The notes beneath the pieces are model-generated. The model was given only the letters and a program-made list of their open reading frames with translations, did no database searches and was not told the origin of the DNA. Positions 1 to 48,123 of a DNA stretch of 64,000 nucleotides are shown one piece after another. The position numbers were made by a program, and so were the translations under genes. This DNA is from Patescibacteria group bacterium (GTDB lineage Bacteria; Patescibacteriota; Patescibacteriia; UBA10025; JAHIVO01). The stretch lies in assembly GCA_041650915.1 (NCBI GenBank), contig JBAZKE010000003.1, forward strand, positions 149,226-213,225. The letters are read 5' to 3'. Position 1 is the stretch's first letter. Each line of letters opens with the position of its first letter.

Positions 1-239
1 CTGACCTCGAGTCCACGGTCATTAGCATCGTGCAGTGGGCACTCGGTTTTCTCGGCCTCATTGCCGTTATTTTCATCCTCTACGGAGGCTTCACCTGGAT
101 GACGGCCGGTGGCAATGAAGATAAAATTTCGACCGCAAAAAAGATTATCACTGCTGCGGTCATTGGTTTGATCGTCATCTTGCTCGCGTGGGCGATCGTA
201 ACCTTCGTCGTTGGGCAGGCAAATGATCTTACGACATAA
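1..239 (+). CDS. TrbC/VirB2-like T4SS pilin family small membrane protein, 5'-truncated by window start (frame is open from nt 3; the ATG at 30 is internal)
   Basis: The reading frame is open from nt 3 (DLESTVISIVQWALGFLGL...). The ~78 visible residues align by eye at roughly two-thirds identity with the C-terminal part of the 119-aa product of 24032..24391 (shared DL.STVI.IVQW.LGFLGL, YGGF, KKIITAAVIGL, LLAWAIVTFV). Two hydrophobic helices; TAA stop at 237-239. Confidence 0.5.
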   Translation, partial: DLESTVISIVQWALGFLGLIAVIFILYGGFTWMTAGGNEDKISTAKKIITAAVIGLIVILLAWAIVTFVVGQANDLTT

Positions 240-359: not shown

Positions 360-3056
360 ATGCCTAAGCACTACTATACATTACCAGCGAGCGAGGTCGT
401 GAAAGACCTCCGGACTTCAGCTGCTGAAGGGCTGACGTCGGATGAGGTGGCGTCGCGGCTCGAAAAGTACGGACCGAACGAACTCCCCCGTGAAGGGTCG
501 TTTTCCGTTTTCGCGCTTTTTTTCAGCCAGTTTAAGAGCATGCTCATCTACATCCTCATCGGTGCCGCAGCAATCAGCTTCATGCTCAACGATACCGTCG
601 ATGCGTGGGTGATCATCGCGGCAATCACGCTCAACGTCATCGTCGGTTTTATCCAGGAGTTTCGGGCGCAGAAATCGCTCGAGAAGCTCAGGGAGATTGT
701 CACGCAGTACGCTGACGTGCGGCGTAACGGGCATGAAGTCGAACGGGAGGCGCGGGAGCTTGTGCCGGGCGATATCGTATTTCTGCGTGCAGGCAATAGG
801 GTGCCGGCTGATATCCGCCTGCTATCGGCGGCCGATCTGCACATATCCGAGGCGAGCTTGACCGGCGAATCATCGCCCATCAAGAAGACGGCCGAGACGC
901 TGCCCTCCGCGGTTATTCTCGCGGAGCAGAATAACATGGCGTTCATGGGCACCACAATCGCCGCCGGCTTCGGCAAGGGTGTCGTTGTGGGGACCGGCAT
1001 GGCAACGCAGCTTGGTAAAATCGCAGAGCTCATCAAGCAGGCACACGAGGAAGAGACGCCGCTTCAGGAGAAGCTTGGTTCTTTCGCAAAGTACCTCGGC
1101 TTCGTGATATTGGGCGTCGCGGCGATTATTTTTGTCATTGGCATCACTCTCGGGTACGACTTTGAGCAGATGTTTACAACCGCCGTCGCGCTCGCAGTCG
1201 CCGCCGTGCCAGAGGGGCTCGTCGTTGTCGTCACGGTTATTCTCGCCATTGGCATGCAGCGCATCCTTAAGCACCGTTCGCTCGTGCGCAAGCTCGTCGC
1301 TGCAGAGACACTCGGTTCAACAACCGTCATTTGCACTGATAAGACTGGCACCCTGACGGAGGGGGAAATGCGCGTCGTGCGCATTATTACGCACAACAGC
1401 GACTTTGACACCGTGCGCGATCTGGTTGAGCGTTCGGGTGAGGATATTTCGATGCAGGGGTACTTTTTAGCGCTCAAAATCGGCGTTATCGCTTCAGATG
1501 CGGTTATTGAAAATCCCGATGAGGCGATTGCCCATCGTACAGTCATCGGCATGCCGACGGAGAAGGCGCTCGTACTGCTTGCCTCCCAAGCGGGGATCAA
1601 CCTGGAAAAAATGCGTAAAGAGAACAGGCGCCTCGATGTCGTGCCGTTTGATTCGAAGCGCAAATTTATGGTCACGCTCAATGAGGATAGCCGGGGAAAC
1701 CACATAGTTTACTGCAAGGGTGCGCCTGAAGTGCTGCTTCGGAGCGCAACCCACGTTGACCTCGATGGAAGCGTTGCGGAGCTCGATAAGAAGAAGCGCG
1801 ATAAGCTCCGGCGGGAATTTGAAAAGCTGAGCAGGGAAGGGCTGCGCATACTTGCGCTGGGCTATAAGAAGGTTTCCGAAGGTACGATAACTATTGGCGA
1901 TGACGAGTCAGCACTCAGGGGGATCGTGTTTGTCGGATTTGCCGGCATTAAAGATCCCCTGCGGCCGGAAGCGAAAGCAACGATAGCAGATTGCCTGGCA
2001 GCGGGCATTAGGCCGGTTATGCTGACCGGTGACCACAAGCTGACCGCGCAGGCTATCGCGGGAGAGCTCGGCCTTCCGAACAGACCAGAGAACGTCATTG
2101 AGGGCGAGGAGTTTGCCAAACTCGACGAGAAGACGCTGAGGGAGCGGATAGCGGATTTTTCAGTGTACGCACGCGTAACGCCGCGTGATAAGCTGCGAAT
2201 TATTGATGCGTGGCAAGACCGCGGAGAGATCGTCGCAATGACCGGCGATGGCGTCAATGACGCACCCGCCCTGAAAGCTGCGGATATCGGCGTCGCGCTC
2301 GGATCCGGGACCGATGTGGCGAAGGAGACAGCGGATATCGTCCTGCTCGACAATAATTTCAAGACGATCGTGCGTGCCGTCATGCAGGGCAGGATTATCT
2401 ATGAAAATATCAAGAAGGTCATCCTTTACCTCATGTCAGACAGCTTTACCGAAATGGTTATTATTACAGCTGCGGTTCTCATGCGCTGGGAGCTGCCGCT
2501 CCTCGCAGCGCAAATTCTGTGGATCAATTTAGTTACCGACGGCTTCCCGAATATTGCGCTGACCATAGAGCCCGGCGAACGCGATATCATGGAGCAGCGC
2601 CCGGTTTCTCCGAAAGCTTCGATTGTTGATTTTGAAATGAAGTTTATCATCGGCCTCATCAGCTTGCTTACCGGCATGCTCGCACTCGGAATTTTTTACT
2701 ATACCTACAAGAGTACGGGCGACCTTAACCTCGCACGGACGATGACATTCGCCGCTGTTGCAGTCGATTCCCTGCTGTACGTTTTTTCCGTAAGGAGCAT
2801 ACGGTACTCCATCTGGCACCGGGAGACTTTTTCAAATAAGTACTTGCTCGTCGCCGTAGCGCTCGGGTTTGGGCTGCAACTTATCGCCATCTACCTGCCA
2901 TTTTTCCAGGATCTTTTTCAGACCGTACCGCTCTCAAGCAAGAATTGGGCGGTCGTGCTGTCAATCGGCCTATTCTCGATAATGGCCATCGAGGTAAGTA
3001 AGTGGGCATTCATGCGGTTCCGCAAGCAGCGGGACGGCATCGCTGCCCGCAGCTAG
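360..3056 (+). CDS. P-type cation-transporting ATPase (type IIA, Ca2+/Mg2+-ATPase-like)
   Basis: 898 aa. DKTGTLT phosphorylation motif (ICTDKTGTLTEGEM), TGDHKLTA, hinge motif TGDGVNDAPALKAADIGVA, about 10 hydrophobic segments and an N-terminal cation-ATPase-N-like region. Confidence 0.9.
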   Translation: MPKHYYTLPASEVVKDLRTSAAEGLTSDEVASRLEKYGPNELPREGSFSVFALFFSQFKSMLIYILIGAAAISFMLNDTVDAWVIIAAITLNVIVGFIQEFRAQKSLEKLREIVTQYADVRRNGHEVEREARELVPGDIVFLRAGNRVPADIRLLSAADLHISEASLTGESSPIKKTAETLPSAVILAEQNNMAFMGTTIAAGFGKGVVVGTGMATQLGKIAELIKQAHEEETPLQEKLGSFAKYLGFVILGVAAIIFVIGITLGYDFEQMFTTAVALAVAAVPEGLVVVVTVILAIGMQRILKHRSLVRKLVAAETLGSTTVICTDKTGTLTEGEMRVVRIITHNSDFDTVRDLVERSGEDISMQGYFLALKIGVIASDAVIENPDEAIAHRTVIGMPTEKALVLLASQAGINLEKMRKENRRLDVVPFDSKRKFMVTLNEDSRGNHIVYCKGAPEVLLRSATHVDLDGSVAELDKKKRDKLRREFEKLSREGLRILALGYKKVSEGTITIGDDESALRGIVFVGFAGIKDPLRPEAKATIADCLAAGIRPVMLTGDHKLTAQAIAGELGLPNRPENVIEGEEFAKLDEKTLRERIADFSVYARVTPRDKLRIIDAWQDRGEIVAMTGDGVNDAPALKAADIGVALGSGTDVAKETADIVLLDNNFKTIVRAVMQGRIIYENIKKVILYLMSDSFTEMVIITAAVLMRWELPLLAAQILWINLVTDGFPNIALTIEPGERDIMEQRPVSPKASIVDFEMKFIIGLISLLTGMLALGIFYYTYKSTGDLNLARTMTFAAVAVDSLLYVFSVRSIRYSIWHRETFSNKYLLVAVALGFGLQLIAIYLPFFQDLFQTVPLSSKNWAVVLSIGLFSIMAIEVSKWAFMRFRKQRDGIAARS

Positions 3057-3152: not shown

Positions 3153-4454
3153 ATGCCTATAGTACGTATTTCCGAAGTTAAGAACTACAAAGACAAACAG
3201 GTGACCATTCAGGGGTGGGTTGCTAATGTCCGTTCTAGCGGGAAGATCGTTTTTTTGCAATTGCGCGATGGATCTGCGGGGCTATTGCAAGCGGTTGTGA
3301 CGGCGCTTGTTGCCAATAAAGAGGTAGGTTATTGGAAAACTGCTGGATTATTGACAATTGAATCGTCAGTGCAAGTTATTGGAACGGTTAAAGCCGAATC
3401 GCGCGCTCCCGGCGGTTTTGAGCTGGAAGTGACTGATCTGCAGCTTGTCCACCAGGCAGCGGAGTACCCCATTGGCAAGAAAGAGCATGGCCCGGATTTT
3501 TTGCTGAATAACCGGCATCTGTGGCTTCGTTCTCAGCGCCAAGCTGCGATTATGCGCGTCCGCGATAGCATTATTTGGGCTTTGCGGGAGTTTTTCCGTA
3601 AAGAAGGTTTTATAATGACCGATACGCCGATTCTGACGCCGACATCGTGCGAGGGAACCACGACGCTGTTCGAAACGGATTACTTCGACGAAAAGGCGTA
3701 CCTGTCCCAGTCCGGCCAGCTGTATCTGGAGGCGCTCTGCATGGCATTAGGGAAAGTGTATGATTTTGGGCCGACGTTCCGCGCCGAGAAGTCAAAAACA
3801 CGGCGGCATCTGACTGAGTTCTGGATGCTTGATGCGGAGATGGCATTTTTCGATTTGGATGCCAGCATCGACCTTCAGGAACGGATGGTTGTCTATGTGG
3901 TACAGAAGGTGCTTTCTGACTGTGCTCCTGAACTCGCATTGCTAAAGCGGGATACGGCGCCGCTTCAGAAGGTGAAGGCGCCATTTATCCGGATGACGTA
4001 CGGGGAAGCGCTCCAGGAACTGAAAAAACTCGGCTCTGACATCGAGTGGGGCACTGATCTCGGAAACGACGATGAGACCCTTCTTACGAAAGCGCACGAC
4101 CGCCCGATTTTTATTACACGGTATCCTGCGGCGATCAAGGCGTTCTATATGAAGCCTGATCCGCAGGACGCGAAGCTTGCGTTGTGCGCCGATATGCTTG
4201 CGCCGGAAGGATATGGAGAGGTGATTGGCGGATCGCAGCGCATCGACGATCTCGCATTGCTTGAGGATCGAATCAAGGAAAATAAATTGAAACGGGATGA
4301 CTTCGAGTGGTATCTCGACCTCCGCCGGTACGGCTCTGTTCCGCATGCGGGATTCGGTATCGGGCTCGAGCGCACAGTCGCCTGGATGTGCGGGCTTAAC
4401 CATGTGCGCGAAACTATTCCCTTCCCGCGGTTGCTGAACAGGCTCCGCCCTTAA
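3153..4454 (+). CDS. asnS: asparagine--tRNA ligase (class IIb; an archaeal-type AspRS is not fully excluded)
   Basis: 433 aa. N-terminal OB-fold anticodon-binding region (VTIQGWVANVRSSGKIVFLQLRDGS). Motif 2 FRAEKSKTRRHLTEFWMLDAEMAF, where EFWML is AsnRS-like. GGSQR and motif 3 GFGIGLERTVAWMCG. Confidence 0.7.
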   Translation: MPIVRISEVKNYKDKQVTIQGWVANVRSSGKIVFLQLRDGSAGLLQAVVTALVANKEVGYWKTAGLLTIESSVQVIGTVKAESRAPGGFELEVTDLQLVHQAAEYPIGKKEHGPDFLLNNRHLWLRSQRQAAIMRVRDSIIWALREFFRKEGFIMTDTPILTPTSCEGTTTLFETDYFDEKAYLSQSGQLYLEALCMALGKVYDFGPTFRAEKSKTRRHLTEFWMLDAEMAFFDLDASIDLQERMVVYVVQKVLSDCAPELALLKRDTAPLQKVKAPFIRMTYGEALQELKKLGSDIEWGTDLGNDDETLLTKAHDRPIFITRYPAAIKAFYMKPDPQDAKLALCADMLAPEGYGEVIGGSQRIDDLALLEDRIKENKLKRDDFEWYLDLRRYGSVPHAGFGIGLERTVAWMCGLNHVRETIPFPRLLNRLRP

Positions 4455-5460: not shown

Positions 5461-6867
5461 TTGAGATGTATGGATAGGACGCTTATCAGCGCAACGCGGG
5501 ATCATGTGGGGCATGAGGTGCGGCTCTGCGGTTGGATCCACGCGACCCGCCGCATGGGGAAGATGGTGTTTATCGACCTGCGTGACGTGAGCGGTTTAGT
5601 GCAGGCCGTTTTCCTGCCGGACAATAAGCCGCTCCTCGAACAGGCCCAGAGCCTTCGGCCGGAATTTGTCGTCGAGGTTGTCGGCCAGGTTAATGAACGT
5701 CCAAAAAAGCTCGTCAACAAGGAAATGTTGACCGGTACGGTTGAAATTCAGGCGCATGCGCTCAAGGTTCTCGCCGAATCAAAAACGCCCCCATTCGAAA
5801 TCGTCGAGACTGAGAAGGAGGAAGTCGGGGAAGAGGTGCGGTACCGGTACCGTTATCTCGATCTTCGGCGGGCGCACAACAGGGATCGCATACTCCGCCG
5901 GTCACGGGCAATAAAATTTATCAGGGACTACCTGCATGAGCGGGGTTTCGTTGAAATAGAAACGCCAATACTGGCAAAGTCCACGCCGGAGGGCGCCCGC
6001 GATTACCTTGTGCCGTCGCGGCAGTATGAGGGAAAGTTTTATGCGCTCCCGCAGTCGCCGCAGCAGTATAAGCAGATGCTCATGGTGGCGGGTTTTGATA
6101 AATACTTCCAGATTGCGCCGTGCTTTCGCGATGAGGATGCCCGCGGGGATCGGGCGCCCGACCAGTTTTACCAGCTCGACCTCGAGATGTCGTTCATTGA
6201 GCAGGCGGATATCCTTGACCTGACGGAGAAACTCTTTACCGCGATGGTACAGGCGGTATTTCCGGAAAAGCACATGACGTTTGGCACGTGGCCGAGGATC
6301 TCATACGACGAGGCGATGAAGAAGTACAGCACGGATAAGCCAGATCTACGAAAGGACAAGAACGATCCAAACGAGCTCGCATTCTGTTTTATCGTTGATT
6401 GGCCTTTGTTTGAGCCGGAAATGGAAGACGGGCACTATGCACCGGCGCACCACATCTTTACCGCGCCCCGCACCGAGGATATCCCGCTGCTCGATTCGGA
6501 TCCATCACAGGCACGTTCATGGCAGCACGATCTCGCGCTGAACGGGTACGAGGTTGGCGGAGGGAGCATTCGGATTACCGATCCTCAGCTTCAGGAAAAA
6601 GTGCTCGGGCTCGTGGGAATTTCTCAGAGTGAAGCGCGGGAGCAGTTCGGGCATATGCTCGAAGCGTTCCAGTATGGCGTTCCGCCGCACGGTGGAATCG
6701 CGCCGGGGATCGACAGGATGCTCATGGTACTCCTCAACGCACCAAACGTACGCGAAGTCGTCGCATTCCCCAAGACAGGCGACAACCGTGAGCCGATGAC
6801 GGGCTCCCCCTCAAGCGTTTCCGAGCAGCAGCTGAAGGATTTGCACATACAGCTCCGCCGTAAGTAA
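5461..6867 (+). CDS. aspS: aspartate--tRNA ligase, compact form lacking the GAD insertion domain
   Basis: 468 aa. OB-fold N-terminus (RLCGWIHATRRMGKMVFIDLRD). Bacterial-type motif 2 CFRDEDARGDRAPDQFYQLDLEMSF and motif 3 GGIAPGIDRMLMVL. The true start is possibly the internal Met at 5470. Confidence 0.85.
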   Translation: MRCMDRTLISATRDHVGHEVRLCGWIHATRRMGKMVFIDLRDVSGLVQAVFLPDNKPLLEQAQSLRPEFVVEVVGQVNERPKKLVNKEMLTGTVEIQAHALKVLAESKTPPFEIVETEKEEVGEEVRYRYRYLDLRRAHNRDRILRRSRAIKFIRDYLHERGFVEIETPILAKSTPEGARDYLVPSRQYEGKFYALPQSPQQYKQMLMVAGFDKYFQIAPCFRDEDARGDRAPDQFYQLDLEMSFIEQADILDLTEKLFTAMVQAVFPEKHMTFGTWPRISYDEAMKKYSTDKPDLRKDKNDPNELAFCFIVDWPLFEPEMEDGHYAPAHHIFTAPRTEDIPLLDSDPSQARSWQHDLALNGYEVGGGSIRITDPQLQEKVLGLVGISQSEAREQFGHMLEAFQYGVPPHGGIAPGIDRMLMVLLNAPNVREVVAFPKTGDNREPMTGSPSSVSEQQLKDLHIQLRRK

Positions 6868-17663: not shown

Positions 17664-19622
17664 ATGGTTTCGTATTGGTTTCTTTACAAATACGATTTTT
17701 TATGCTATAATAATTTTGTAAGTACATATTTTTTTTCGATTCAACGCGTGAAACCATTTAAACGCCATCACTACTTTCTTTTTTCTGCGATATTAGCAGG
17801 GTTTTTTTTAGGAGCCGTCGCAATTTTTTTAATTCAGCGCATTCCAACGGCCGAGCTGACGGGAGTAGGCGTCGGTAACCGCATGCAGCATGATGCGGAG
17901 ATTGCTTTGCAGTTTGATATGCCCGTTGCACGGTCAGTGAGCGTCACGATAGAACCGGAGGTGTTTGGAGAAATTCGTTTTGAGGATATGATCGTAGGCC
18001 ATCACCTCGCACGCCGAGTCGTTTTTCAGCCTGCGGTTACGTGGCAGCCAGGAGTTGAATACATGGTCCATGTATCAGGAGTCCGCAGTGCGCTGTTTCC
18101 GTACGGCGATGAACACGAGCAACTCATTACCTTCACCACCGAAAGTGAGCCCGACGTGAGTATCGTAACGCCGTCGCAAGATGGTGAAATCCGTTCAGAT
18201 GCCGAGTGGCGCATTGCGCTCGACCGTCCCAACCTCGGGAATTTTAATTTTTATTTTCATTTTGATCCGTCAGTTGAAGTCGAATCTTCGCTCTCGGAAG
18301 ACCGCGGGAGCTATCGAATCAAACCCGCGGGACTGCTCTCCCAGGGGCAGCAGTATGCACTGACAATCGAACGTGAGCCAATCAGATTTCTATACAATAC
18401 CGAGGAAGTCGCGTTCCGCGGCGAACCCGAAACCGTATGGCAGGGAAGCTGGAACGTCCGTAAGGCCCCCGGCATCGAGAGTTTTTCGCCCCAGGGTGAC
18501 CAGGTCGCAACGACTGCTGACCTGTCCATAACGTTCGATGAGAATATCGATCTCGCTTCATTCCGCGAGTCGGTGCAAGTTGAACCGGCGGTGGGCGGCT
18601 CATGGACGACAGCGGACTACCGAACCATAACGTTATCTCCGGCTGCGCTCGAACAGGCTGTGACCTATACGGTCAAGCTCGCGGCCGGACTCGAAACGTT
18701 CGGGGGAGGATACCTCGAGGAAGAGGCAGCCTACTCGTTTTCAACCATTGGACCGGCTGCGCTCGACCGGTCGTCACCTGCCGCTGGAGATACCGGCTTC
18801 AATGTGAACGGTGCGATGCGCCTCACGTTCGACCAGGAAGTCGACCACGCGTCCGCTCAAGAGCACTTTTCAATTTCGCCGCCCGTTGCAGGTACTTTTT
18901 CGTGGGACGGGTTGACCATGATTTTTCAGCCGACGGCGATGCTCTCGTTCAATACGGAGTATGCCATTACGCTCACGAGCGGCATTGCAGCTCCGGAGGG
19001 CGTACATTCGCAGCAAACCTACACGATTCCTTTTACGACGGAGCTATCGGTTACCAAGCTCTCAGTGGCGTTCCACCGGCAGGAGCACTCATTGAGCTGC
19101 GAGGTGGCAACTCTCGTTATGGCCCTCCAGTACCGTGGTTTATCAGTATCAGAAGCACAGCTTATTGATGCGATTGGATTTGACCCAACGCCCAAAGAAG
19201 GGGGTGTCTGGGGAAATCCCCACATTGCATTCGTTGGAGATATTGACGGCCGCCAGCCGACAACCGGCTATGGCGTGTACTGGCAGCCGGTTGCGCAGGC
19301 GGCGCAGGCGTACCGTAGTGCGCGGTGGTTTACAGACTGGAGCATCACTGACCTGACTGCGGAGATCCAGAAGGGCAATCCGGTCATTGTCTGGGGCACT
19401 GCCGGTTCCGGGTCGCGGATCGACTGGAAAACTCCGGAGGGCGGCAACGTCGTTGCGATCAACGGCGAGCATACCTACCTCGTCATCGGTTTCATGGGTT
19501 CTGCGAGCAATCCGACGAAAGTGATTGTGCTCGATCCGCTCTCAGGCGAACGCTACTTTACCCTGAGTTCGTTTTTATCCAACTGGGGGCTCCTGAACCG
19601 CAGCGGCGTGGTTGTTGAGTAG
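17664..19622 (+). CDS. membrane-anchored protein with tandem Ig-like (SbsA/Big_5-type) repeats and C-terminal C39-like cysteine-peptidase domain
   Basis: 652 aa. N-terminal TM helix (FLFSAILAGFFLGAVAIFLIQ). About four ~95-aa beta-sandwich repeats. C-terminal ~170 aa with candidate catalytic Cys (HSLSCEVATLVMALQY) and His (INGEHTYLVIGF), consistent with a Peptidase_C39_2 fold. Start is ambiguous: a TTTACA-17-TATAAT promoter at about 17687-17720 suggests a downstream GTG start near 17749. Confidence 0.55.
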   Translation: MVSYWFLYKYDFLCYNNFVSTYFFSIQRVKPFKRHHYFLFSAILAGFFLGAVAIFLIQRIPTAELTGVGVGNRMQHDAEIALQFDMPVARSVSVTIEPEVFGEIRFEDMIVGHHLARRVVFQPAVTWQPGVEYMVHVSGVRSALFPYGDEHEQLITFTTESEPDVSIVTPSQDGEIRSDAEWRIALDRPNLGNFNFYFHFDPSVEVESSLSEDRGSYRIKPAGLLSQGQQYALTIEREPIRFLYNTEEVAFRGEPETVWQGSWNVRKAPGIESFSPQGDQVATTADLSITFDENIDLASFRESVQVEPAVGGSWTTADYRTITLSPAALEQAVTYTVKLAAGLETFGGGYLEEEAAYSFSTIGPAALDRSSPAAGDTGFNVNGAMRLTFDQEVDHASAQEHFSISPPVAGTFSWDGLTMIFQPTAMLSFNTEYAITLTSGIAAPEGVHSQQTYTIPFTTELSVTKLSVAFHRQEHSLSCEVATLVMALQYRGLSVSEAQLIDAIGFDPTPKEGGVWGNPHIAFVGDIDGRQPTTGYGVYWQPVAQAAQAYRSARWFTDWSITDLTAEIQKGNPVIVWGTAGSGSRIDWKTPEGGNVVAINGEHTYLVIGFMGSASNPTKVIVLDPLSGERYFTLSSFLSNWGLLNRSGVVVE

Positions 19623-19666
19623 CAGTTGACAGGAAATACACGCTGGTGTAGTGTATTGAGTTATCT

Positions 19667-20470
19667 ATGAATAAGAGAATCCTCATCCTCAATACGGTTC
19701 TGGTGCTGCTGATCGTTGCCGGACTTGGGTATATCGGGCGTCACCAGATCATCGACCTCTGGGAAGGCTGGATGTCTGATCCGGTTCCAGAATCTATTAC
19801 CTATGTGGAAATACTCAATCGCAGCCTGAACGAGAACAAAGCCCAGGATGAAGCTATCCTGGACACGAACGCCGCTCCGGCAGAGCCCATGGTCGAAATA
19901 CCCGAAGTGATGAACCTCGATGTGCCGTTTACGACCCAATCGCCGTTTGCCGAATGGACCGAACAGGACAATGAATCATGCGAAGAGGCCGCCGCCTTAA
20001 CTGTCCATTATTACTGGCAGCAAAAAACATTTACCAAGCAAATAGCACAAGATGAATTGCAGGCGATCGTCGATTTTGAAAACGGTTACTTCGGTTTTTA
20101 CAAGGATACGACGGCAGCCCAGACGGCAGAATTTATCAAAGAGCTCTGGGGTTACGAGCGGGTTGATGTCGAGTACGGCATCACGGTCGAGGATATTAAG
20201 CGCGAGGTGGCGCAGGGGCGGCCGGTCATACTTCCTACCGCCGGGAGGTTGCTCGGCAACCCGAACTTCCGGGAACCGGGCCCGCTCTATCACATGGTCG
20301 TCGTACGCGGCTGGACCGAGAATATGATCCTCACGAATGATCCGGGCACCCGTAAGGGTGAGAACTACCAGTATGGGCCGGATGTTCTGTATGGAGCGAT
20401 CCACGACTGGAATGGCGGGGACGTCGATGCCGGCCAAAAGGCGATGATCGTCGTGTGGCCGAATGATTGA
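19667..20470 (+). CDS. membrane-anchored C39-like cysteine-peptidase domain protein
   Basis: 267 aa. N-terminal TM helix. Candidate catalytic Cys in NESCEEAAALTVHYYW and His in YHMVVVRGW, with the same domain order as the C-terminus of the preceding gene. Confidence 0.5.
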   Translation: MNKRILILNTVLVLLIVAGLGYIGRHQIIDLWEGWMSDPVPESITYVEILNRSLNENKAQDEAILDTNAAPAEPMVEIPEVMNLDVPFTTQSPFAEWTEQDNESCEEAAALTVHYYWQQKTFTKQIAQDELQAIVDFENGYFGFYKDTTAAQTAEFIKELWGYERVDVEYGITVEDIKREVAQGRPVILPTAGRLLGNPNFREPGPLYHMVVVRGWTENMILTNDPGTRKGENYQYGPDVLYGAIHDWNGGDVDAGQKAMIVVWPND

Positions 20471-20539: not shown

Positions 20540-21553
20540 GTGAAAAAAACACTCCTTCTCATTCTGTCCATCGTTGTCGGTATAGTTCTCTTTATCGGCG
20601 TTTTAATATACATCGGTCCCGAGGAGCTCGCGGTTGCTTTTGAGTCGTTTTCATGGGGGATGATAGCGATTATTGTCGCCCTGGGATTCCTGCAAATTTT
20701 TATCGCCATATACCGCTGGCAGGTCGTGCTGGCTGCCCACGGAGACCGGATCCCATTTCGCAAGCTCATCTCGCCGAAGTTTGTCGGTTTTACGGTCAGT
20801 TTTTTAACCCCCGGGATGTATATCGGGGGCGAACCTGTCCGCGCCTATTTGCTTAAGAAAAAGACGGGATTGCGGTACTCACGGGGGCTCGCTTCTATTA
20901 TGATCGACAAAATTCTCGATTTCACGTACCCGTTACCGTTTTTAATCGGCGCGCTCATATACGCGATGCTCACGTATGATATCTCGTGGGAGGGGGTTAG
21001 CGTGTTTGTCGCCGTCTTGGTGGTACTCATCGGGCTGCTCGGAATGTTTTACGTACAGACGTACCGGGGGCAAGGCTTTTTTTCATCGCTTATTAAATTA
21101 TTCCAGCTGCACCGTTTCAATAAGATCAAGAAGCTCATTGAAAAGATGCTCTATTTTGAAAAGCTCATCATCACTTTCTTTAACAACCGGAGGATTGTCG
21201 TAGTGCAAGGTTTGTTGCTCTCGCTTCTCGGCGGCGTGGTTACATTCATCCAGTTCATGGTCATACTCCATTCGCTCGGGATCGAAGCTGATATCGTTGA
21301 GATTCTGGTCATGATGGTGTTTATGATCCTCTCCTTTTTCATGCCGATTCCGGCATCGCTCGGATCATTTGAAGCGAGCCAGGTCATCGTATTCACTGCC
21401 CTCGGGTATCCAGCCTCGATCGGCGTTGCCTTTACGCTCATCCTGCGCGTTGCGGAGCTCGCTAAGCTCAGCATCGGATTAACGTTACTGTCTAACCTTG
21501 GCCTCAAATTTTTAAAGGAACTCCCCTCCAAGAACGGGGACCGCAGTGACTGA
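20540..21553 (+). CDS. flippase-like / UPF0104 (lysyl-PG-synthase TM-region-like) polytopic membrane protein
   Basis: 337 aa, GTG start, about 8 hydrophobic helices. N-terminal pattern LLILSIVVGIVLFIGVLIYIGPEELAVAFESFSWGMIAIIVALGFLQIFIAIYRWQVVL is typical of the family. Confidence 0.55.
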   Translation: MKKTLLLILSIVVGIVLFIGVLIYIGPEELAVAFESFSWGMIAIIVALGFLQIFIAIYRWQVVLAAHGDRIPFRKLISPKFVGFTVSFLTPGMYIGGEPVRAYLLKKKTGLRYSRGLASIMIDKILDFTYPLPFLIGALIYAMLTYDISWEGVSVFVAVLVVLIGLLGMFYVQTYRGQGFFSSLIKLFQLHRFNKIKKLIEKMLYFEKLIITFFNNRRIVVVQGLLLSLLGGVVTFIQFMVILHSLGIEADIVEILVMMVFMILSFFMPIPASLGSFEASQVIVFTALGYPASIGVAFTLILRVAELAKLSIGLTLLSNLGLKFLKELPSKNGDRSD

Positions 21554-21685
21554 GTAGGGCAGCATTGCGAACAGCGGACGAATTGCGCATGCCCGTTTTT
21601 TTTGTACTTGACTGCCGAAGCCCTTCGCCCTATACTTGTGGATAAGTATGATTTTTCATACTTTTATTCGTAAACTCACACGTCC

Positions 21686-21940
21686 ATGCATTTACCGCAA
21701 CATCATGGCATATCCTATGGCGCAACGACCATCGGAGCCAGGGGGCAAGTCGTCATCCCGGCCCAAGCCAGAAAAGACCTTAACCTGAAAGAAGGCGACC
21801 GATTATTGGTTTTATGCTGGCAAGGCAAATTGCTCGGGCTCGTAAAGAGCGAGACGATTGATGAGTATATCGATATGATAACAAAAAAAATGTCTAAAGG
21901 AATTGAGGAACTCAAAAAAATGAAAGTCTCAGCAAAGTAA
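21686..21940 (+). CDS. AbrB/MazE/SpoVT-family DNA-binding protein
   Basis: 84 aa. Swapped-hairpin motif TTIGARGQVVIPAQARKDLNLKEGDRLLV. A TTGACT-17-TATACT promoter-like element lies about 55 nt upstream. Confidence 0.55.
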   Translation: MHLPQHHGISYGATTIGARGQVVIPAQARKDLNLKEGDRLLVLCWQGKLLGLVKSETIDEYIDMITKKMSKGIEELKKMKVSAK

Positions 21941-21967: not shown

Positions 21968-22777
21968 ATGGAATACATCATTGAAGTTAAAAATTTGGTA
22001 AAAGAATTCAAGGGTTTCCGCGCTGTGGATGATATTTCATTTTACGTAAAGCGGGGTGAGGTGTTCGGCTTTTTGGGGCCAAACGGCGCTGGCAAATCAA
22101 CGACAATCAAGATGCTGTGCACGCTCCTGAGGCCCACCTCTGGCAGTGGAAGGGTGGCGGAGCATGACATTGTAGAAGATCCGGCGCTTGTCCGTGAGCA
22201 CATCGGGCTGGTGGCCGAGAAAATAATTTTATACGATCGGCTTACGGCGCTGGAAAATTTGATGTTCTTCGGCAGCTTGTACCATCTGCCGAAAAAAGAG
22301 ATTGCTGATCGTGCAAAAAAATGGCTGCAGACGCTCGAGATGGGCAAATGGCAGGATAAGCCCGTTGGCACGTTTTCGACCGGCATGAAGCAGCGCGTCA
22401 ATATCGCCCGCGCCCTGTTGACCCAGCCGGAGGTGATGTTTCTGGACGAGCCAACTCTCGGTTTGGACCCCCAGACATCGCGCTCAATCCGCGATTTTAT
22501 CAAAGACCTGCATGCGCATGGCGTTACGGTGATACTCACTACCCATATCATGCCGGAAGCTGACGAGCTGGCGGATACGATCGCCATCATTGACCATGGC
22601 AAGATTATTGCGCTGAATACGCCTCAAAATTTGAAGCTGAGCATTCAGAAAGAGAATGCGACGCTGGAAGACGTTTTCCTGCAGTTGACCGGCAGGGACA
22701 TGCGCGAAGAGACGCACAACAATGTTCCATCGGCCCGTGGCGGACATATGTTCGGCGGCAGGTCAAGAATCAGGTAG
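21968..22777 (+). CDS. ABC transporter ATP-binding protein
   Basis: Walker A GPNGAGKST, ABC signature STGMKQR and Walker B MFLDEPTLGLDP. Confidence 0.85.
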   Translation: MEYIIEVKNLVKEFKGFRAVDDISFYVKRGEVFGFLGPNGAGKSTTIKMLCTLLRPTSGSGRVAEHDIVEDPALVREHIGLVAEKIILYDRLTALENLMFFGSLYHLPKKEIADRAKKWLQTLEMGKWQDKPVGTFSTGMKQRVNIARALLTQPEVMFLDEPTLGLDPQTSRSIRDFIKDLHAHGVTVILTTHIMPEADELADTIAIIDHGKIIALNTPQNLKLSIQKENATLEDVFLQLTGRDMREETHNNVPSARGGHMFGGRSRIR

Positions 22778-24031: not shown

Positions 24032-24391
24032 ATGTCAAAAAAAATTTCCGCCGGTCTATTTGCCGTTATCGGCATGGCACTGCCAGCCGTTAGCTTGGCA
24101 CAAGCAGGCGCCGGCCAATACGGTTCTACTTTCGGGATAGGAACCGCGGATCTGGCTTCAACGGTTATCATGATCGTACAGTGGGTTTTGGGATTCTTAG
24201 GCCTGGTCGCTGTACTCATGATTATCTACGGTGGTTTTATTTTACTGACGGTGGGTGGCGGCAATGAGGAGCGGGCGGCATCATCAAAAAAAATAATCAC
24301 GGCGGCTGTCATAGGGTTGGCCGTTGTTCTACTGGCGTGGGCGATTGTCACGTTTGTGATCGGAACGACGGGTAACGTGGCGACCGGCTGA
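24032..24391 (+). CDS. TrbC/VirB2-like T4SS pilin family protein (signal peptide plus two hydrophobic helices)
   Basis: 119 aa. Signal peptide with AQA cleavage site. The mature part is paralogous to the truncated ORF at 1..239. Starts 30 nt after the ABC-2 permease stop. Confidence 0.5.
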   Translation: MSKKISAGLFAVIGMALPAVSLAQAGAGQYGSTFGIGTADLASTVIMIVQWVLGFLGLVAVLMIIYGGFILLTVGGGNEERAASSKKIITAAVIGLAVVLLAWAIVTFVIGTTGNVATG

Positions 24392-24643
24392 GCGCCCCAA
24401 CGCGGCTATATTCCTCAAAAAGCATCACCGTCTTGGGCTCCGTCTAGGCTAGGAAGCTTTTTCCCATTCAGCACTTCGATGCCCGCAATCTTCCATTGCG
24501 GCTATTGAGAAGGCTGTAATTCCATCAAGAGCAAGCGCCTGCCGCCGGCATTGACATACTGTGCAGGGGGTGTATATTTAACAGATTTTTACCGTGGTAT
24601 ACTCATATCGTGAATTAATATATAAACGTTAGGGAATTGACCT

Positions 24644-25177
24644 ATGGGAGAAGTACCAATACCGGTGGAGGATTTGGAGGAAGCGCAATCTTTTGATGCA
24701 GGCCGTAAATCCATGCCCGATGCTTCAGATGGAGCGGAGGAACCTGACGATGAAGGCGGAGAAGCTGAAGTGCCTGAGGAATTTCCGACAGAAACGGGTG
24801 TGGATAACATGGTTTTTGAGTCGGAGGCAAGCTTGGAAGCTGAAGACATCGCCGAGCATCTTAATGCCGTTTTTAGCCGTGGCCTGCCAAAAGGAGCAGA
24901 AATACTGCCAAACGATATACTCGAGCAGTACGCCATGTTCAGGGCTAATGGCCAACCGGCTCGGGAGTGCCGTGCCACTAGAATTTTCGGTGAAAAGCTG
25001 GGCAAACCCGATGTCGTGATAGAAATCATCAAGGCAGGCCAGAAGCTCGCACTGAAGGAGCGGCGGGCGGAATGGAATGGCGTTGATAGGGAACCGTCAC
25101 CAGAGATACAGAAGATGATCGATAACGGGGAGCTGAATCCCGATGAAGTAACGGAGTACATGGAATCGCTCGTCTGA
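24644..25177 (+). CDS. acidic hypothetical protein
   Basis: 177 aa, very acidic N-terminus (EEPDDEGGEAEVPEE); a TTGACA...TATATT promoter-like element lies upstream around 24553-24580. Confidence 0.4.
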   Translation: MGEVPIPVEDLEEAQSFDAGRKSMPDASDGAEEPDDEGGEAEVPEEFPTETGVDNMVFESEASLEAEDIAEHLNAVFSRGLPKGAEILPNDILEQYAMFRANGQPARECRATRIFGEKLGKPDVVIEIIKAGQKLALKERRAEWNGVDREPSPEIQKMIDNGELNPDEVTEYMESLV

Positions 25178-25268: not shown

Positions 25269-27146
25269 ATGAGTAAATCATTTCCTATGGATACCCACTC
25301 AGAGCTCACTCCGGAGCAAAAGAAGCAGTTAGCCAGGTCAAAGGCGATCCTGTGGATCGGGCTGACGGTCATCGTACTGCTCGGACTGGCTGTGGCCGTG
25401 TATTTTGTATTTTTGAAAAGTTCGGATGAAAATCTGAATACCAGTACGGACGAATCAACTCTCAATAGTAACGCTGAGGCAAGTCAGAACATTAATGTTT
25501 CTGGATTGAATAACGTCGATATCAGTACGGAGTACGCCGTCGTTACCGAGGAGCCGGATTTGGTGACATGGGAGCCGATCCAGTGTACGGGTGATCTGCT
25601 ACGTGTTGATCTACAAGTACCGATGGCATGGTCAACGTTTGTCTTCGTCGAGGGATCGAGCAGTTTATCGGGGCGGCTGCTTTTTTCAAATTCCAGTACA
25701 CTTGGATTCAACCTCAATAGGATGACCGTTCCGGCAGGGACGCCGTTCCAAGAGTACCTGGAGGAGTATAGCAGAAGCGCTGCCGGCTTTTCATCGGCCA
25801 GCGGAGAAAAAAAGGACATCGTATTCGGGGCGATCGGAGATCGTAAGATCGCAGTGCTCGATATTCTCTCTGACGAAGGGACGTACCTGACCCGCAACGT
25901 TTTTTTCAGCGTTGAACCGTACATCATTAGAATTGAAACCCACGGCCCGCTCGATGAGTATCGGCAGGCTGCAGCCACGTTTGCACGGATTATCGGCAGT
26001 GTGGAGATTAGCGGCATATCGGTCGATACGGGTATACGGTGGCTATCCCAAAAGGACGATCAGTTTGGGTATTCAGTGCACTATCCGAGCACGTGGAAGC
26101 ATTCGAATAAGACAACAATTTTGCCGAATACCTGGGAGAGTCTTGTGTTCGGGATATACAAAACGTATACGAACAGTAACGGGGATGCTGATTCGGGTTC
26201 TTTTGAGATTCGATACTCCATGGAGCCGTTTGACGGTTTACTTGAAGAGTGGGTTCGTGCACATGATTATCGTTTCGATAATGATGCGATCACAGTTCGT
26301 ACGTTCGAGTCGACTGAATTGACTGGCCATAATGCACTGTACCTCGAAGCGACCAGCAATGTTGCTGGTGGTTATATAAATTCGTACTTTCTGGACGTTC
26401 AAGGGTATGTGATGCATATTGGCATCAATTCGCGGATACTTTCTATCGACAAAGAAAACCAGCAGGACTTTGACGATACGGTTGAGCGGATGATGAGCTC
26501 CTTTACTTTTTCGGAAGAACCGACGTTCTTGCTCAGCGATACGTATGAGTACGAAGAGTCTATCACAAATTCGGCAACCGGCGCGTCGTACGCGATCCGT
26601 CGCCCAAAGATGTGGGAACACTGTGGTAAGTCTGGTTGCGCACTTGTAGAAGTTGCCGATAATACTACATATAATGTCGTCGCCTATCTTTTTATAAAAG
26701 AGGGGGGCTTCTACCCATCCGCTTCGATTGCCGGTTTTTTGGATGCTGATACGATCGTATTGCATTATCGGTCATGGGATCACGGTGGTGGATACGATCG
26801 CCTTTTTTCACTCAATCTGAAAACCTACACACAGACGGAACTTCTATTTTATGATTCACGGGAAGATTCTTCGAGTGGGAAGTACATGTCAAACTCGATT
26901 TATTTTAAAAAGGATGGCAAGGAGCTGGCATTTGTGAATAACGTTGTGCCATACACAGCTGAGTATACGGAGACCGGCGTATGGGTGAATGCGGGTGACG
27001 GTTGGGAGCAGCTATCTTTTGCGGAAGAGCCAACGTTCAATATTGATTTCAAGCCACTCGAGAATTACCGGAACGGCAATCTGTTGTCATTGACTATCAA
27101 TAGTCGCCAGTACACGTTTGATTTTGATACGATGGCGTTTCAGTAG
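25269..27146 (+). CDS. hypothetical membrane-anchored extracytoplasmic protein with PsbP/Mog1-like motif (tentative)
   Basis: 625 aa, N-terminal TM helix; internal motif RWLSQKDDQFGYSVHYPSTWK is related to 27160..28209 and 4857..5459. Confidence 0.45.
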   Translation: MSKSFPMDTHSELTPEQKKQLARSKAILWIGLTVIVLLGLAVAVYFVFLKSSDENLNTSTDESTLNSNAEASQNINVSGLNNVDISTEYAVVTEEPDLVTWEPIQCTGDLLRVDLQVPMAWSTFVFVEGSSSLSGRLLFSNSSTLGFNLNRMTVPAGTPFQEYLEEYSRSAAGFSSASGEKKDIVFGAIGDRKIAVLDILSDEGTYLTRNVFFSVEPYIIRIETHGPLDEYRQAAATFARIIGSVEISGISVDTGIRWLSQKDDQFGYSVHYPSTWKHSNKTTILPNTWESLVFGIYKTYTNSNGDADSGSFEIRYSMEPFDGLLEEWVRAHDYRFDNDAITVRTFESTELTGHNALYLEATSNVAGGYINSYFLDVQGYVMHIGINSRILSIDKENQQDFDDTVERMMSSFTFSEEPTFLLSDTYEYEESITNSATGASYAIRRPKMWEHCGKSGCALVEVADNTTYNVVAYLFIKEGGFYPSASIAGFLDADTIVLHYRSWDHGGGYDRLFSLNLKTYTQTELLFYDSREDSSSGKYMSNSIYFKKDGKELAFVNNVVPYTAEYTETGVWVNAGDGWEQLSFAEEPTFNIDFKPLENYRNGNLLSLTINSRQYTFDFDTMAFQ

Positions 27147-46739: not shown

Positions 46740-47375
46740 CTACGACTGGTAGTCGAATACGAGAACGTATTTCGCGATGTAGAACATCGCATCTTTCTCG
46801 ACAAACGGCATACCGCATTTGTCGGATACGACTGCATCGTAGGGCTGGCGGATAACCAGTTCACACGACATCGAGGACGGAACCGCGACTTCGAAAAATC
46901 GCTTACGATCCACGTTTCTCAAGTCTTGAAAAACGCGGACCCCGTTCTGATTTCCGCAGTACGATATTTGCGGAAATCCAGGATTGCCGTTTGCAACCTT
47001 CGGGAAGCTGATCTCGAAGGCCGCGTGCAATCCGGTCACCCAGATCGTGTCCATGTTAACCGTGTGTTTGATATTTTTGTATTGAAGCACGCGGTCTTTG
47101 CTTTTTTCCGGGAGATTTATGGTGTAGATCTTGCCATCCATCTCCATGCACTCCTCGAAGGGGTAGTACAGCTGGGAGGAGTTCGTTGAACCCCACCGCC
47201 AGTGGCGCGTAATGAGCAGATGATCATCCGCGCCAGGTGTACACGCCCGTTTGAAAAAAGCCAGGTCTCCGCCAACCTCACCGAGGTGAATGCTGGTGCA
47301 GCCCGATAGCAGCGATAAGCTGACTAAGCTGACAATGAAAAGAGCCAACAGAACCGACAGTTTCGTCTTCATCAC
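46740..47375 (-). CDS. hypothetical lipoprotein
   Basis: Signal peptide with lipobox LLSGC; 211 aa. Confidence 0.45.
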   Translation of the reverse strand: MMKTKLSVLLALFIVSLVSLSLLSGCTSIHLGEVGGDLAFFKRACTPGADDHLLITRHWRWGSTNSSQLYYPFEECMEMDGKIYTINLPEKSKDRVLQYKNIKHTVNMDTIWVTGLHAAFEISFPKVANGNPGFPQISYCGNQNGVRVFQDLRNVDRKRFFEVAVPSSMSCELVIRQPYDAVVSDKCGMPFVEKDAMFYIAKYVLVFDYQS

Positions 47376-47541
47376 TCTCTCCTCGAGTATATTGATTTCT
47401 ACTATTTTCCATTTACGAACAAGCCTACCATACTACCACCAGTATTATGTTTTGTCAAGGGTAGTTGTGCACATACCGAAAACCTTGATTTTTCTCGGAA
47501 AATGTGATATAATTGAAAAAGTTACAATTGCATTTTTTACT

Positions 47542-48123
47542 ATGGCGCAAGGTCCGGACACCAATATTAAAAAAGGAGCTGAACAGGAGCCGGGGGGGAT
47601 TGAAGATATTTTTGATTTGGCAAAGGAGGCAAAGCCGCCCGTCCCAGAAACAACCCCTGAGCAGCCCACAGCGAGGGAGGTTACCCGGGAAACGCCGGTT
47701 GAAGCGGCGCGTGAAGCAAGGCCGGAAGCGATTCCGGAGCAGGAGCCGGCAGCAGAATCAGAGGATGCCCGCCTGAAGTATGCTCCGCCTCCGGCAGCGG
47801 CTGCAACACCGGCAGCGGCGCCTGCCGCCAAGAGCGAAGAGCTGCGGAAGATCGAGACCGTGCTGTCAGAGCACCTCGACGAGCTTTTTCTGCAGATGAC
47901 GCCGGAGCAGCAAATTGCATTCCAGCAAAAGGGGGAAGAGACGGCGTCGAAGATCGAGAAGCTCATGCAGAGCGCGAAGGTGAAGGTGAGAGAGATCCTT
48001 TCGCTGATCAGGGACTGGCTGAAAATTATCCCCGGCGTTAATAAGTTTTTCATCGAGCAGGAAGCAAAAATCAAGACCGACCGCCTGCTTGCGTTCCACG
48101 AACAGAAACACAGAGAAAAATAA
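47542..48123 (+). CDS. hypothetical protein with Pro/Ala/Glu-rich low-complexity N-half
   Basis: Start placed at MAQGPD (47542), 25-30 nt downstream of an extended -10 TGTGATATAAT. The conserved-looking C-terminal ~90 aa is helical. Directly upstream of the VirD4-like gene. Confidence 0.4.
   Translation: MAQGPDTNIKKGAEQEPGGIEDIFDLAKEAKPPVPETTPEQPTAREVTRETPVEAAREARPEAIPEQEPAAESEDARLKYAPPPAAAATPAAAPAAKSEELRKIETVLSEHLDELFLQMTPEQQIAFQQKGEETASKIEKLMQSAKVKVREILSLIRDWLKIIPGVNKFFIEQEAKIKTDRLLAFHEQKHREK

Follow-up and report, generated by a model that had tools for sequence, protein, structure and literature searches.

Anaplasma, Bartonella and Rickettsia, host-dependent bacteria with reduced genomes, carry several scattered or duplicated virB2 paralogues, and their type IV secretion system (T4SS) genes are dispersed. 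These scattered paralogues are also mentioned in a survey from 2025 that covered 3,035 genomes of Patescibacteria and the profiles of which include PF18895 and PF04956 (PMC12102498). The survey reported VirB2-like pilins for 1,948 assemblies of the phylum, in 1,135 of which they lay near virB4, together with 441 pilin arrays of 2–11 genes each, and found orphan type IV coupling proteins (T4CPs) to be very common, with 5,713 homologues, of which 148 were near virB4 (PMC12102498). A pilin array and other T4SS genes of Southlakia are cited as essential for epibiotic growth (Wang et al. 2023, as quoted in PMC12102498 and PMC12857230). Multiple pilin paralogues located away from virB4 are already a described feature of Patescibacteria. 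In this study, two pilin genes, designated pil1 and pil0, were analysed in a 64,000-nucleotide stretch of DNA (the window) from a Patescibacteria group bacterium (contig JBAZKE010000003.1, positions 149,226 to 213,225), in which pil1 follows the genes of an ATP-binding cassette (ABC) exporter. We consider it likely that both are ordinary scattered VirB2-like pilins of Patescibacteria, and that the position of pil1 behind the ABC genes is a lineage-specific gene order without functional partnership.

The two small proteins had been judged by eye, in the original prediction, to be about two-thirds identical. In BLASTP, pil1 and the pil0 fragment shared 52 identities over 79 residues (66%, E = 2e-34), in agreement with that estimate. 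DNA identity was 62%; therefore, the pair represents an old duplication and not a repeat artefact. pil1 lies on a 273-kb contig of a Patescibacteria metagenome-assembled genome (MAG; ENA ERZ27247363) under the NCBI tag WC505_05335. The truncated paralogue, earlier placed at 1..239, was indeed present at the window start, with its coding part in frame 3 (bases 3..236, 78 aa; stop codon 237..239), frames 1 and 2 being broken there. A 117-aa protein encoded on the same contig, P0037 (NCBI WC505_05195), ends in 78 residues matching window positions 3..236 exactly, and its gene sits immediately 5′ of the P-type ATPase gene of the window. Because of this identity and the shared ATPase neighbour, pil0 is a complete gene cut by the window edge, and the possibility raised beforehand that this copy is a pseudogene fragment is ruled out. 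Searches of the window for a third copy of the subfamily (tblastn and a subfamily hidden Markov model, six frames) returned pil0 and pil1 only, and no extra pilin-like candidate was found among its small open reading frames (ORFs) with at least two hydrophobic segments.

Profile searches placed both proteins in the T4SS pilin family, as had been predicted. PF18895 (T4SS_pilin) was matched at 44.7 bits by pil1 and 48.7 bits by pil0, against a gathering score of 26.6, and by all 36 aligned relatives. The other profile proposed for the check, PF04956 (TrbC/VirB2), was not matched by pil1 even at E up to 1, and among the 36 relatives only P0120 (1.3e-5) matched it. NCBIfam model NF045849 (Mbov_0395 pilin-like, of a Mycoplasma integrative and conjugative element) aligned over profile positions 12–79 of 80 with 31.6 bits (E = 9.8e-8), under its 40-bit cutoff, which points to a related family and not to membership. 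Altogether, 271 pilin relatives were found, nearly all in Patescibacteria; all had PF18895, and several were annotated as "pilin" or "VirB2 component". The identity of the two products as putative T4SS pilus subunits rests on this homology and on the literature.

Hydropathy analysis of pil1 showed three hydrophobic segments at residues approximately 5–25, 41–77, and 85–114, agreeing with the signal peptide and two hydrophobic helices described earlier. The N-terminus starts with the basic residues MSKK, continues as a hydrophobic core, and has AQA at the end of the first segment; these features predict a Sec-type signal peptide, and no double-glycine leader was present. The two long helices that follow are connected by the basic loop GGGNEERAASSKK. 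An AlphaFold2 model computed with the 36-sequence alignment placed helices at 3–25, 38–74, and 79–118 (mean predicted local distance difference test score 75.7), suggesting a helical hairpin behind a signal helix. In the alignment, 28 columns did not vary, among them those of the signal-peptide Ala, GTADL, QW, GG, GGNE, KK, and LLAWAIV; the A-x-A site and the GGNE..KK loop were kept across the subfamily, and mean column identity across species was approximately 57%. Comparison of pil1 with its orthologues gave omega (dN/dS) values of 0.07–0.13, indicating purifying selection, and these orthologues have in common a one-residue insertion and the signature LLTVGxGN..RAASSK, with RAASSK in the loop. 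Judged by these sequence features, pil1 is a functional and strongly constrained membrane or surface protein of the Sec type.

As far as they are described in PMC12102498 and PMC12857230, the six-gene array of Ca. Southlakia epibionticum ML1 and the TM7x array (PF18895) share with the window proteins the family, the phylum, the size, and a signal peptide followed by a two-helix hairpin, and VirB2-like pilins of this type likewise occur as several paralogues per genome, often away from virB4. The window copies differ from these arrays in being single, scattered, and set in housekeeping neighbourhoods with no virB4 nearby, not in a tandem array at a T4SS locus. They are also much more conserved, the mean column identity of their subfamily contrasting with approximately 25% identity within T4SS pilin arrays (PMC12102498). 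The T-pilins of the TrbC/VirB2 family (PF04956; Agrobacterium VirB2, RP4 TrbC, F TraA) resemble the window proteins as small Sec-dependent precursors with a hydrophobic hairpin and a short polar loop, and the close relative P0120 provides a match to their profile. The differences are that the window proteins lack this match and a VirB5 or VirB3–VirB11 neighbourhood, and that the host is monoderm. Likeness to the virB2 genes of Anaplasma, Bartonella, and Rickettsia lies in the several paralogues of a reduced genome with dispersed T4SS genes; their paralogues, however, are divergent and thought to serve antigenic or host-range variation, whereas those of the window type are strongly conserved from one species to the next.

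A scan of species-representative genomes yielded at least 276 pilin relatives, of which 80 loci (L009–L088) were kept, and neighbour classes were obtained by homology clustering of all ORFs around these 80 loci. The commonest context, class A (41 loci), has NTP_transferase and an SBP_bac_1-like protein (464 aa) before a single pilin or a tandem of two or three, and then a DUF2079 membrane protein (approximately 666 aa), all on the same strand. Class B (13 loci), with the order DnaB ... pilin, P-type ATPase, AsnRS, is the position of pil0. A signal peptidase, HisRS, HIT, S21, YqeY, and a pilin module make up class C (14 loci), and various neighbourhoods were seen in the other 12 loci. Related genomes typically had 3–4 loci of this pilin subfamily each, and the subfamily occupies 3–4 fixed housekeeping positions per genome. 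An ABC ATPase stood immediately 5′ of the pilin in only two of the 80 loci (L009 and L041), both pilins of which fell in the pil1 subclade of a neighbour-joining tree and carry its one-residue insertion and RAASSK motif. Examples of class A are found at L040:10001-12861, L046:5122-6279, and L055:9565-10729. Many MAGs were titled "uncultured Gammaproteobacteria bacterium" (binchicken, SRP co-assemblies) and one "Pirellulales", with Patescibacteria-type synteny like that of the window (for example L010, L014, L027, L028, L033, L035, L036, L039, L041, L042, and L044); the taxonomy in these record titles looks incorrect.

Nine genomes of relatives of the window organism encode class C proteins of 2,015–3,442 aa in which the N-terminal approximately 125 aa are a complete PF18895 pilin module; their genes always lie 3′ of HisRS-HIT-S21-YqeY (Table 1). 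The fused module contains a signal or transmembrane segment, GTADL, and the hairpin. Two of these giant proteins were scanned, and both showed an N-terminal PF18895 followed by immunoglobulin (Ig)-like domains of the Big_5, Big_7, Big_13, and TIG types. This layout agrees with the predicted topology, in which the C-terminus faces outward, and suggests either that the proteins are adhesins displayed on a pilus or that the hairpin anchors them in the membrane.

The original prediction had placed the other paralogue, pil0, directly upstream of a P-type ATPase gene. The order was found to be conserved in 13 species-level genomes (L010, L011, L012, L016, L019, L020, L025, L026, L029, L035, L038, L042, and L065), with a gap of approximately 100–200 nt and ATPase identities of 52–70%, but only as part of a larger syntenic block: GT4, DUF192, L21, RecR, YbaB, and DnaB precede the pair in the same genomes, and AsnRS, two small genes, AspRS, and a 107-aa gene follow it. 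Because these genomes also have the surrounding block in common, the adjacency carries no specific functional signal. A role of the pilin as a small regulatory ATPase subunit, of the sarcolipin or KdpF kind, was considered in view of the recurrence in 13 species and rejected as unsupported, the entire 15-kb block being syntenic in these genomes. Gene order is unusually stable in this clade. Within the window, this part holds two class II tRNA-synt_2 paralogues of the Asp/Asn/Lys type (3153-4454 and 5461-6867; 27% identical) with two unannotated small genes between them, an arrangement that is kept across the clade.

The genes upstream of pil1 were as the original prediction had described them, with an AbrB-like gene, an ABC ATPase gene, and an ABC-2 permease gene in that order (Table 1). 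The four genes of the cluster are co-directional and separated by 27, 12, and 30 nt, the last being the gap in front of pil1, and no terminator-like site was found between permease and pil1 by consensus scan. Because of the tight gaps and the lack of a detectable terminator, read-through from the AbrB promoter and co-transcription of pil1 with the pump are plausible; of the earlier claim, the cluster is thus confirmed as a layout, and the transcript remains a plausible consequence of it. The promoter reported before the AbrB-like gene is present as a consensus-like site, but the number of such sites in the region equalled chance expectation and did not exceed that in shuffled sequence. An LPG_synthase_TM/flippase-like gene ends at 21553 and is followed, before the promoter-like site, by a hairpin with a U8 run (sequence and fold of 21550..21610), which probably ends its transcript. 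The AbrB-fold protein is the probable regulator, encoded by the first gene, of an ABC exporter operon. Downstream of pil1, the second promoter-like site probably marks the end of the AbrB-ABC-pilin unit; in the 252-nt spacer 3′ of pil1, the consensus scan found no terminator, and folding showed only a hairpin of 7 bp lacking a U tract, with an overall stability in the ordinary range (z = −0.23). Upstream of the pilin, no conserved internal promoter or ribosome-binding motif beyond A/T richness was seen in three orthologous loci.

Table 1 Features of the window and giant pilin-module fusions in related genomes
Feature	Coordinates	Strand	Evidence and remarks
pil0, 3′ part	3..239	+	78 codons and stop; the 117-aa full gene begins upstream of the window
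P-type ATPase, PMR1/SERCA-like Ca2+	360..3056	+	Pfam and NCBIfam; 120 nt after pil0; context gene
Promoter-like site TTGACT-17-TATACT	21608..21636	+	Consensus scan 10/12; approximately 50 nt 5′ of the AbrB-like gene
AbrB/SpoVT/MazE-fold DNA-binding protein, 84 aa	21686..21940	+	PF04014 31 bits; TIGR01439 45.4 (cutoff 28.3)
ABC ATPase, DrrA-like	21968..22777	+	PF00005 119.8 bits; TIGR01188 drrA 310.6 (cutoff 312.45)
ABC-2 permease, 403 aa, large extracytoplasmic loop	22790..24001	+	PF12698 ABC2_membrane_3 188.4 bits
pil1	24032..24391	+	119-aa pilin paralogue, PF18895; focus of the finding
Promoter-like site TTGACA-16-TATATT, strong	24551..24578	+	Consensus scan 11/12; for the next gene, 24644..25177
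VirD4/TraG-like T4SS coupling-protein ATPase, orphan, 846 aa	48148..50688	+	PF10412, PF02534, PF12696; sub-threshold TraD/VirD4 NCBIfam matches
Giant pilin-module fusions	L069:9941-19993; L048:507-10451; L033:9863-19318; L053:9902-20230; L032:9902-19405; L063:9872-18064; L058:9872-17944; L049:5182-13491; L082:9851-15898		

By its sequence matches the ABC pair is an ABC-2 exporter, the permease showing sub-threshold NCBIfam matches of the DrrB/SagH/RbbA-like kind (drrB 108.6, cutoff 223). It resembles the DrrAB-type ABC-2 pumps in its drrA score of 310.6 bits, its ABC2_membrane_3 permease, and the small DNA-binding protein heading the operon. It differs from them in that the regulator has an AbrB/SpoVT fold, not that of TetR or MarR, and in that the drrA score falls just under the curated cutoff. 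Several side observations concern the genes around this operon. Two adjacent Peptidase_C39_2 (PF13529) genes, 17664-19622 and 19667-20470, one of them with Big_5 Ig-like domains, lie 5′ of the flippase-like gene; this pair before the flippase-like gene and the AbrB-ABC operon is kept in L005, L006, and L112 and partly in L002. The two genes directly after pil1, 24644-25177 (177 aa) and 25269-27146 (625 aa), had no Pfam match; the 625-aa protein gave a marginal FliL-like N-terminal match (E approximately 1e-3) and a weak homologue in L097 (24% identical).

Relatives of the ABC-2 permease were searched for in metagenomes, and 26 loci were obtained with permeases 45–91% identical to that of the window, 12 of them with at least 1 kb of downstream sequence. 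A pilin followed the permease in one of these 12 (L093) and was lacking in the other 11. The permeases of L096 and L097 are 90–91% identical to the window's, and similarity stops at the permease stop codon; no pilin remnant was found 3′ of the ABC-2 operons in these two loci. In L094 (permease 84% identical), the AbrB-ATPase-permease unit is followed by convergent genes. AbrB was detected upstream of the permease in L093, L094, L095, L098, L101, L102, L103, and L112, and the AbrB-ATPase-ABC-2 permease unit recurs in L094, L095, L098, L101–L103, and L112. More distant AbrB homologues, from Doudnabacteria and others, head MFP-MacB-FtsX operons without a pilin. Because relatives of the operon occur without it, the conserved unit consists of an AbrB-fold regulator and an ABC exporter, to which the pilin is a neighbour. 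In Patescibacteria, genes of the AbrB/SpoVT family were seen to come first in operons for ABC exporters, in no fewer than three architectures (ABC-2, fused ABC_membrane, and MFP+MacB+FtsX), the operon heads being at 21686-21940 in the window and at L089:6001-6312, L091:6001-6315, L092:6001-6282, and L005:3890-4144; the family is a candidate general efflux regulator.

A pilin is kept at this place in only 3–4 related genomes, and orthologues of pil1 have other ABC genes beside them. L002, L003, and L093 have AbrB, two ABC-2 pairs, a 31-nt gap, the pilin, a MacB-type pair, and HrcA. In L005, L006, and L009, an AbrB gene with a product 74% identical to that of the window precedes two fused ABC_membrane/ABC_tran exporters, a 22-nt gap, the pilin, a MacB-type pair, and a two-component system. 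In L041, a MacB pair comes first and FtsEX next; a T-run resembling a terminator and a tRNA-like sequence then lie before the pilin, which is followed by an EamA gene. The upstream ABC types, including the single ABC-2 pair of the window, are different and non-orthologous, and the MacB permeases flanking the orthologues are only 24–34% identical. The region L041:5300-5460, between FtsX and the pil1-type pilin, contained a hairpin with the T-run and the sequence that by eye resembles a tRNA gene.

The only other homologue of T4SS machinery in the window, 24 kb from pil1, is the orphan T4CP-like gene of Table 1, which fits the frequent occurrence of orphan T4CPs in the phylum. It is preceded by a 277-aa ORF (47290-48123) without Pfam or NCBIfam match and followed by a gene for a 1,228-aa FG-GAP repeat protein (50875-54561).

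The observations that weigh against reading pil1 and pil0 as ordinary scattered pilins concern the ABC neighbours of pil1 on one side and the tie to a T4SS on the other. ABC exporter genes adjoin the pil1-type variant in all four species found to carry it, the gap to the upstream ABC gene is 22–31 nt in three of the four, and the adjacency exceeds random expectation, though three of the four share locus ancestry. Such a pattern would be expected if the variant were tied to ABC exporters, as an AbrB co-regulated, possibly stress-induced, alternative pilin or as a small accessory pump subunit, and the subclade signature, the "AbrB ... pilin" frame kept in three of the four species while the ABC genes between are swapped, and the lack of a terminator between permease and pil1 agree with it. 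However, because three of the four species share one ancestral locus, the independent cases number approximately two. The ABC systems concerned fall into four or more architectures without relation to one another (ABC-2, type I exporter, MacB, and FtsEX), which argues against a specific protein-protein partnership; in L041, moreover, the T-run and tRNA-like sequence part FtsX from the pilin, and close relatives of the window's ABC-2 operon lack the pilin. We therefore regard a tie of this kind as rather improbable. The pilin stays constant while the ABC content turns over; therefore, a variable efflux island beside a resident pilin gene fits better than a specific partnership, and the non-orthologous upstream ABC genes and pilin-free operon relatives also leave the special export meaning that the original prediction attached to the ABC neighbour without support. 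That prediction went further and proposed Sec-independent export or processing of pil1 by the ABC-2 system, or a bacteriocin-like use. The place of pil1 directly after an exporter and the two Peptidase_C39_2 genes a few kb upstream (17664..20470) could be cited for it, but the family as a whole has a classical Sec signal at the N-terminus, with its basic n-region, hydrophobic core, and A-x-A, and not a double-glycine leader; permease and ATPase have no peptidase domain, the Peptidase_C39_2 proteins being products of separate genes; and the mature part, with its two transmembrane helices, high column identity, and strong purifying selection, is unlike bacteriocins. With the pilin-exporter linkage conserved neither among the permease relatives (1 of 12) nor among the pilin loci (2 of 80), this proposal is largely refuted and has hardly any probability left.

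As to the T4SS, no VirB4-like ATPase was found within 10 kb of any of the 80 pilin loci, the 41 loci of class A included, among Walker-A proteins of 500–1100 aa after exclusion of ABC exporters, DnaK, and one unidentified 539-aa ORF, and neither VirB4 nor VirB6 was found among all ORFs of at least 400 aa in the window. Because neither is nearby, it is by family membership that pil1 and pil0 are tied to a T4SS. The premise that pilin genes normally lie beside VirB4/VirB6 does not hold in Patescibacteria, given the survey count of 1,135 of 1,948 assemblies and the subfamily loci described here. Structural searches did not discriminate: Foldseek with the pil1 model against PDB returned only generic helical hairpins (such as chemoreceptor, BAR, and ESCRT helices; best E = 0.23), and a hairpin of only two helices offers a fold search too little to tell pilin identity by. 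No VirB2 came up when PDB sequences were searched with a profile, the one match being weak and irrelevant (Magnesium transporter protein 1, 6s7t_H; E = 4.3). The subfamily might accordingly be no T4SS pilus subunit at all and instead a general two-helix membrane hairpin, an anchor or scaffold that shares ancestry or composition with VirB2-like pilins. Besides the lack of VirB4, the outcome of these searches, and the missing PF04956 matches of the window proteins, this would suit the fixed housekeeping neighbourhoods (SBP-pilin-DUF2079, DnaB..pilin-P-type ATPase, and YqeY-pilin), a housekeeping-level conservation far above that within T4SS pilin arrays (PMC12102498), and the occurrence of the module as the N-terminus of Ig-domain proteins of 2,000–3,400 aa. 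The clear PF18895 matches of both proteins, the TrbC/VirB2 match of P0120, and the sub-threshold NF045849 match stand against it; a fused adhesin is equally compatible with a subunit displayed on a pilus, and pilin genes distant from virB4 are common in the phylum (PMC12102498). We consider a non-pilus hairpin unlikely. Still another reading, quite improbable in our estimate, regards the subfamily as a modular surface-anchoring or filament subunit employed at fixed chromosomal sites (alone, in tandem, or fused to giant Ig-domain adhesins), with pil1 as a specialised copy under AbrB control together with interchangeable efflux cassettes.

According to the reading of both genes as ordinary scattered VirB2-like pilins, the pil1 and pil0 precursors would be inserted via Sec and their signal peptides cut at the A-x-A site. 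The mature pilin of approximately 95 aa would fold into a hairpin of two helices, its two ends facing outward and its basic GGNE..KK loop inward, be stored in the membrane, and be used as a surface or pilus subunit by a monoderm-type Patescibacteria T4SS encoded elsewhere in the genome. The AbrB-fold regulator and the DrrAB-like ABC-2 pump would constitute a separate, self-contained module, also occurring without the pilin. The pilin gene lies right behind the efflux genes in the genome of the window and in two or three of its relatives, and read-through from the AbrB promoter would probably transcribe it.

With the two genes, a pilin family that had been catalogued throughout Patescibacteria gains two members, and the odd neighbour of pil1 is explained by local gene order. 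It also calls for caution in streamlined, highly syntenic genomes, where a 30-nt gap and a common strand are no evidence of common function. Should the modular-subunit reading be true, the composition of surface filaments would shift together with efflux under chemical attack from the host or competitors. The giant Ig-domain fusions are the most interesting side observation, and, together with a pilin subfamily conserved at housekeeping level and never found beside virB4, such adhesin-like proteins may bear on how Patescibacteria build their host-contact apparatus.

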